DNA from: a virus
Lineage: Duplodnaviria > Heunggongvirae > Uroviricota > Caudoviricetes
Direction: 5' to 3' (one strand)
DNA length: 8,299 bases
Virus record (IMG/VR): IMGVR_UViG_2579778916_000005
Of the stretch, positions 133 to 234 are shown one piece after another; positions within the stretch are counted from its first letter, which is position 1; each line of letters starts with the position of its first letter. The notes under the pieces were generated by a model, which worked only from the letters and a program-made list of their open reading frames with translations, had not been told where the DNA came from and searched no databases. A program made the position numbers and the translations under genes.

Positions 133-234
133 TTACCCCACAGGTACAGCTGGCCATTCGATAACCGCACTAAGGAAGTGCCAACACGATATCAGCAAGA
201 CCCGATATTTCTTCCATGCCGCCAGCAACGATGT
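133..234 (-). pseudogene. 3' remnant of a tail fibre assembly (tfa) gene, about 32 codons plus stop
   Basis: Minus-strand translation of 133..234 reads [36 protein letters not shown]. It is colinear, with the same spacing, with the C-terminus of the intact Tfa at 820..1401 ([36 protein letters not shown]). DNA similarity is patchy and ends abruptly near 235, where the sequence becomes AT-rich. No start codon or N-terminal part is present. Confidence 0.6.

Follow-up and report, generated by a model that had tools for sequence, protein, structure and literature searches.

We analysed a stretch of 8,299 nucleotides, referred to here as the window, from the end of a lambda-like E. coli prophage that carries the tail-fibre genes. 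Behind the intact tfa gene lies a short tfa-like sequence, psi-tfa-1, which is best explained as a non-functional relic: an intact tfa formerly occupied this place, and only its final 32 codons are left. We place the probability of this reading at about 0.88; some of the events that it calls for can be read directly from prophages of the present day, and others are reconstructed from the way in which the segments are joined. It is textbook knowledge that tail-fibre and tfa genes are mosaic and are exchanged among phages (Haggard-Ljungquist 1992; Sandmeier 1994; both cited in PMC3945230).

Organization of the tail-fibre end

The tail genes of the window all lie on the minus strand, in the order J fragment, lom, an stf' fused to a 'J, lom, stf and tfa, and are followed by AT-rich DNA (Table 1). 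Positions 1-1450 are 100% identical in at least 18 E. coli chromosomes among the matches listed; at least 80% of this segment is present in 520 of 5,426 complete E. coli genomes. One of the identical genomes is APEC O2-211 (L001, whose coordinates are those of the window plus 12000), where the prophage lies directly against a truncated ydfJ, the Qin site.

Table 1. Features at the tail-fibre end of the prophage. Positions are those of the window, except for psi-tfa-2, which lies outside it and is given in L001.
Feature	Position	Strand	Description or basis
3' flank of the formerly intact tfa, and start of spacer 2	1..132	minus	Collinear with the DNA after the YPE10 tfa stop
psi-tfa-1	133..234	minus	Former tfa: last 32 codons and stop, decayed, with +1 and -1 indels
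Non-homologous junction, spacer end to tfa codon ~161	235..241		Alignment of window and TUM12355 with ev099, mEp332 and PhiR70_1
Spacer 1	242..819 (235-819 including the junction)	plus	AT-rich cargo module ("moron"), 24-37% GC, travels with intact tfa
YncL-like small membrane protein ORF, 33 codons (MKIQSKLIVLLNIIIAFILFELLAQKFGLSTLF)	453..554	plus	NCBIfam NF000537 and K-12 YncL alignment
Intrinsic-terminator-like hairpin and T-run	703..735	plus	Fold energy -27.1 kcal/mol, z -6.7
tfa, intact, 193 aa	820..1401	minus	Pfam Caudo_TAP E 9.6e-44; PGAP name tfaQ
stf, side tail fibre, 1132 aa	1401..4799	minus	Gene list and genome annotation
psi-tfa-2, second tfa 3' stub	L001 11385-11494	minus	~0.5-0.6 kb past window position 1

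The stf gene is mosaic relative to that of YPE10 (L008 5238-8261), with blocks of 87-93% identity at window 4898-3271, 2122-1762 and 1587-819 that are separated by stretches without detectable DNA similarity. The J-lom module is duplicated (4606-6465 and 6466-8299), and the copies are two different alleles. They are 88-89% identical over lom, the N-terminus of stf and part of J, but their J receptor-binding ends (5570-5908 versus 7433-7789) are unrelated. The two copies meet at ~6466, where stf codon ~66 is fused non-homologously to the C-terminal third of J. No locus in the 5,426 complete E. coli genomes aligns across this junction without a break, and either an uncommon rearrangement between two prophages or a chimeric assembly could account for it.

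A decayed tfa 3' end behind the intact gene

The 32 codons of psi-tfa-1 occupy 231-136 with a stop codon at 135-133, and 585 bp separate them from the stop codon of the resident tfa, which lies on the same strand. The first-pass annotation had described a tfa 3' end of ~32 codons in direct orientation 0.6 kb behind the intact gene, and both its coordinates and its strand are right. The similarity on which that description depended is significant: psi-tfa-1 is 73.8% identical to the resident tfa 3' end over 103 nt (blastn, E 6e-11), its peptide shares 18 of 32 residues with resident Tfa (blastp, E 3e-10), and its local alignment score of 42 against the tfa 3' end compares with 9.4 +/- 1.3, and a maximum of 17, for 1000 dinucleotide shuffles. 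Tile-by-tile local alignment located no tfa 3' end-like sequence elsewhere in the window. About 590 of the 5,426 complete E. coli genomes contain psi-tfa-1.

Against the Pfam Caudo_TAP profile (PF02413) the unrepaired sequence scores 19.3 bits (E 0.0013), under the cut-off of 22.1, and after frame repair, which gives the reading found in F95 and TUM12355, it scores 46.4 bits (E 5.6e-12) over profile positions 102-130 of 131, the significant match expected of a remnant of such a gene. A functional tfa is a full-length ORF of ~190 aa that includes the N-terminal part and lies directly behind a co-oriented tail-fibre gene. The positional homologue in YPE10 does lie there, whereas psi-tfa-1 has 32 codons only and is cut off by the 585-bp spacer; the DNA upstream of it is AT-rich and non-coding, with a stop codon within 12 codons.

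Two tfa-type sequences close together behind a tail-fibre gene are also found in the invertible segments Mu G, P1 C and e14 P, and a remnant of such a switch might be looked for at this site, since K-12 Qin, also at ydfJ, presumably carries the invertase gene pinQ beside tfaQ. The two tfa sequences here are nevertheless direct, both on the minus strand, and not inverted, and no gene for a Gin/Pin-family invertase lies between tfa and ydfJ' in L001. No crossover site of the gix/pix type is nearby: a lone match to AAACC-NN-GGTTT, which we take to be the core of the 26-bp invertase crossover sites, is at 6179 and has one mismatch, and 43 of 200 shuffles equal it. We regard the probability of an invertible origin as close to nil, in agreement with the first-pass annotation.

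An intact tfa at the position of the remnant

If psi-tfa-1 is what is left of an earlier tfa, related prophages might have an intact gene in its place, and this is what the comparison that had been suggested for the locus yields. In YPE10 (L008, a prophage by prfC) an intact 193-codon tfa at 4657-5238 is immediately followed by a version of spacer 2 that is 80% identical, and then by psi-tfa-2. The stop codon of this gene aligns with that of the stub, and its 3' flank aligns with window 1-132. Such a contiguous arrangement of intact tfa and spacer 2, collinear with the stop codon and with 1-132, is present in 13 E. coli genomes, which we call the YPE10 type. About 560 genomes of the window type match the YPE10 query in two pieces with a span of 1606 bp versus 921 bp, and the extra 685 bp are the 585-bp spacer plus the 100-bp stub. 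Spacer 2 as a whole (window 1-132 and ~520 bp more) was found in 591 genomes, 10 of which hold a ~80%-identical version of it.

At its 3' end the YPE10 tfa is 73.8% identical to the stub, which is about the level of the resident tfa (71.8%), and 90% identical to the resident tfa itself; YPE10 is therefore a positional witness and not the allelic parent. We found no intact tfa of the stub's own allele (containing NRVGTSLVPDIEWP and ending with LLNRVGTSLVPDIEWPAVPVG) in the 5,426 E. coli genomes and 50,697 phage records. This search, by megablast and blastn of window 1-260 and spacer 2 against E. coli and by tblastn against the phages (2.3 Gb), returned only positional homologues of the YPE10 type. 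Among alleles, lambda Tfa comes nearest, its C-terminus being 87% identical to the frame-repaired 32-mer (E 1e-10).

These comparisons also bear on whether psi-tfa-1 could have arisen when the 3' end of the resident tfa was duplicated locally and then diverged, as the direct orientation of the copies and their separation by 0.6 kb would allow. The copies are only ~72-74% identical, while the intervening sequence matches phages without a stub at 95-97% identity; the 3' flank of the stub is a different module, which in YPE10 stands behind an intact tfa; and the repaired peptide is nearer to lambda Tfa (87%) than to resident Tfa (75%, counted by eye). A local duplication is accordingly very unlikely, and a remnant of a separate, earlier tfa is the reading that we follow below.

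Spacer 2 contains a hypothetical ORF of 65 codons, antisense to the tail genes (L001 11803-12000, plus strand), which ends one base before window position 1. YPE10 keeps its length, with roughly 70% amino acid identity by manual count. The ORF belongs to no Pfam or NCBIfam family, a match to GlgS (E 0.037) not being significant.

Decay of the remnant

It had been noted earlier that the reading frame of the remnant is preserved while its middle is divergent. This is true superficially, but the frame has been restored by accident. Relative to tfa, the DNA of psi-tfa-1 has a 1-nt insertion (GATATCG versus GA-ACCG) and, 35 nt after it, a 1-nt deletion (TAGTG-CGG versus CTGCACCGG); the ~11 codons between these indels are out of frame, and the divergent middle, ISCWHFLSAV, is tfa sequence read in the wrong frame. 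The stub copies in F95 and TUM12355 have the +1 indel only and are read in two frames, the second ending RVGTSLVPDIEWPA(V/A)P(V/I)G, and PGAP labels both as a tfa pseudogene, 'frameshifted; incomplete; missing N-terminus'. Since the frame is open only in the lineage of the window, where two indels compensate each other, the open frame of 31 codons is a lineage-specific accident. The stub ends with TAA in the window and with TGA in F95. Compared with the TUM12355 copy, the window's stub has 92% identity, about the same level as the adjoining spacer at 235-340. The psi-tfa-1 sequence is a dead fossil, non-functional and decaying, and not a conserved ORF; some RefSeq genomes already list it as a pseudogene, and it is an ordinary feature of a known kind.

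The same observations weigh on the proposal that the segment is a functional small gene, either a 31-codon ORF (133-228) for a mini-Tfa C-terminal peptide or the candidate sRNA 'IS009' (Rfam RF02111). The frame is indeed open in the window from a TTG start, and IS009 matches at 172-247 with E 1.4e-5. An open frame of 31 codons does not make a gene, however: it is shifted in F95 and TUM12355, and neither a promoter-like site nor a Shine-Dalgarno sequence lies ahead of it, in keeping with the earlier description of a promoterless copy. The IS009 match reaches 33.1 bits against a gathering score of 117 and aligns only the unpaired 3' tail (model positions ~137-199), the structured 5' part being absent. 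The IS009 model is itself inside tfa coding sequence: its 3' third codes tfa, and this is the part that the stub matches, while full-score matches lie inside the intact tfa genes of the window (860-1058, minus strand), of K-12 (tfaD, L006 7857-8055) and of YPE10 (L008 4697-4895). A match to IS009 in a prophage marks a tfa gene or a fossil of one and is no evidence of an sRNA, and we see scarcely any likelihood of a functional small gene here.

The spacer and its cargo

Spacer 1 is 95-97% identical to the DNA immediately 3' of tfa in phages ev099 and mEp332, and to that 3' of a 47-codon tfa stub in PhiR70_1; to TUM12355 it is 80% identical. In these three phages the shared sequence ends at window ~241 and is followed by unrelated DNA toward an AraC-family regulator, IS remnants and int. 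The small ORF of the spacer codes for a hydrophobic peptide and matches the NCBIfam YncL model NF000537 over positions 1-28 of 30 (E 1.3e-5) with 25 bits, under the cut-off of 35, and we therefore call it YncL-like and do not regard it as an equivalog. In TUM12355 it still has 33 codons; of the codon differences 8 are synonymous and 5 non-synonymous, and the nucleotide differences are distributed over the codon positions as 7/2/12, with 12 of 21 in the third; judged by this substitution pattern, it looks like coding sequence. A weak promoter-like site is present upstream of it at 390-418. The terminator segment is almost unchanged between the window and TUM12355 despite the spacer-wide identity of 80%, and a second conserved hairpin lies ahead of it at 655-670. 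The ORF runs antisense to the tail genes, and none of the genomes and phages inspected has an annotation for it. Spacer 1 has no DNA similarity to K-12 ybcY or to the K-12 yncL locus.

The junction and the order of exchanges

Homology to tfa starts at ~235 and thus meets the end of the spacer shared with phages within a few nucleotides. In ev099 no tfa-like sequence follows the spacer, scores against tfa, the second stub and tfaX all being at the level of chance. Two apparent exceptions were discarded. A match of AGAGTGCAAAA in ev099 to psi-tfa-2 after the spacer has a score of 13 versus 11.0 +/- 1.7 for shuffles, and the apparent cover of window 132-830 by ev099 is a joining artefact in which 132-231 align to the 3' end of ev099's own tfa; ev099 is without a stub. 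Had the crossover taken place within the conserved tfa 3' block, it would have left an unbroken hybrid tfa and no stub, and because the donor side is without tfa the founding join is non-homologous. The proposal that the stub was left by recombination within conserved tfa 3' sequence consequently fails, as the junction at 235-241 is non-homologous and the donor phages continue into unrelated DNA. Parsimony would make the phage-type arrangement of ev099, mEp332 and PhiR70_1, which has no stub, the donor state.

The spacer retains a trace of what happened subsequently. At sites that are informative between TUM12355 and the phages, the window is of the TUM12355 type at 18 of 18 from 235 to 325 and of the phage type at all but a few from 341 on, and the switch between types lies between 325 and 341 in the window but between 266 and 282 in F95. 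These switches indicate that the present stf-tfa and most of spacer 1 arrived later by homologous exchange with ev099-like phages. Later homologous exchanges with the right-hand crossover inside the spacer have taken place at least twice, independently. It was not the resident tfa that displaced the parent of the fossil; the resident gene was swapped in later with most of the spacer.

These structures point to the following order of events. An ancestral prophage had stf, a tfa that we denote tfa(B), and spacer 2, as YPE10-type prophages have today. In it, the tfa of another lambdoid phage, tfa(A), together with a 585-bp cargo would have replaced everything upstream of tfa(B) codon ~161; the cargo is the module in which the YncL-like small-protein gene and its terminator run antisense to the tail genes. 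On the left, this replacement would end somewhere in homologous tail or tail-fibre DNA, and on the right at the non-homologous join at 235-241; it could have been as small as the tfa 3' part and the cargo module. The orphaned 100 bp has since decayed neutrally, first by the 1-nt insertion and then, in the lineage of the window, by the frame-restoring 1-nt deletion. The same process had taken place earlier, leaving psi-tfa-2, and, as the informative sites show, exchanges with ev099-like phages later overwrote stf-tfa and most of the spacer, with different crossovers in the window and in F95. The first-pass annotation had proposed that a tail-fibre-end module was replaced here and that exchange at the locus was repeated; the former agrees with the stub as a remnant of an earlier tfa whose positional homologue is intact in the YPE10 type, and the latter with the second stub downstream and the two different crossover points in the spacer.

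A more speculative explanation for the presence of the stub is that it is retained as a portable patch of homology: the conserved ~54 nt coding for the AWKKYRVLL motif would let Red/Rad52-type recombinases cross with any lambdoid tfa, so that tail fibre, tfa and cargo could move with the stub carried along. Stubs of this kind at the ends of lambdoid prophages would then be 'landing pads' for the repeated capture of a tail-fibre set and cargo, and units of stub and cargo would accumulate in order at the prophage end, here as tfa, YncL-like module, stub 1, 65-codon ORF module and stub 2. In line with this, stub copies with the tfa-spacer-stub composite are found at three chromosomal sites, namely ydfJ, bioA-ybhB (the F95 prophage, L007) and a Rac-type remnant beside trkG (the TUM12355 copy, L002); the most widely conserved part of the stub, 182-235, is 87-89% identical to tfa of unrelated phages; and lambda and Rac recombine inside tfa in the laboratory (PMC3945230). 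But the stub accumulates indels and shows no more conservation than the spacer next to it, both of the later exchanges that can be mapped crossed in the spacer and not in the stub, and simple hitch-hiking explains its persistence. We think it improbable both that this stub is retained as such a patch and that tfa 3' stubs serve in general as landing pads, and prefer to see psi-tfa-1 as a passively carried, decaying fossil.

A second tfa fossil downstream

A second stub, psi-tfa-2, lies ~0.65 kb beyond psi-tfa-1 and ~0.3 kb from the truncated ydfJ. It reads AKEKGTTLLALWIKYRVLLNCVDT up to an in-frame stop and then PDIEWSEVPV in another frame, and so has a frameshift as well; it is older and more decayed than psi-tfa-1, and it is also present in YPE10 and F95. 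With it the order of the prophage end becomes tfa, spacer 1, stub 1, spacer 2, stub 2 and host DNA. Taken together, the two stubs show in what order two cargo modules came to lie behind the tail-fibre genes.

A further type of tfa fossil, with the last ~47 codons only, was observed directly behind a different side-tail-fibre gene in PhiR70_1 (L005 3269-3409) and TUM12355 (L002 4778-4912). Since PhiR70_1 was propagated on E. coli C, its fibre is apparently independent of that Tfa.

Comparison with known systems

The closest intact relative of the fossil allele is Tfa of lambda (orf-194, PF02413), with whose last 31 residues the repaired stub is 87% identical; in contrast to that gene, the stub comprises the C-terminal sixth only, is frameshifted and has no tail-fibre gene upstream. 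Lambda takes up DNA of the defective prophages Rac and Qin by Red-mediated recombination in stf/tfa (PMC3945230), and in these crosses, described by De Paepe et al. (2014), relaxed homologous recombination exchanges stf-tfa with crossovers in or beside tfa. The later exchanges reported here, with their crossovers in the spacer, are of the same kind, whereas the join that founded the stub differs in having no homology on the donor side.

The nearest parallel in organization is the end of the K-12 prophage DLP12 (tfaD - ybcY' - tfaX - appY), for which a literature search on tfaX and tfaD returned unrelated acronyms only. There, as in the window, a tfa is followed by ~0.7 kb of cargo on the opposite strand and by a C-terminal tfa fragment in direct orientation, and psi-tfa-1 has each of the properties of a fossil of the tfaX type, being direct, behind an intact or longer tfa, and separated from it by opposite-strand cargo. 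The gene behind tfaX, appY, is of the AraC family, and the flank downstream of tfaD is collinear with that of psi-tfa-2. The two systems differ in that tfaX has ~60 codons and the stub 32, in that the DLP12 cargo is a methyltransferase pseudogene, ybcY, and not YncL-like, and in that the spacers are without DNA similarity. The stub of the window marks a module boundary in a common family of E. coli prophages, and its importance is mostly for annotation and natural history.
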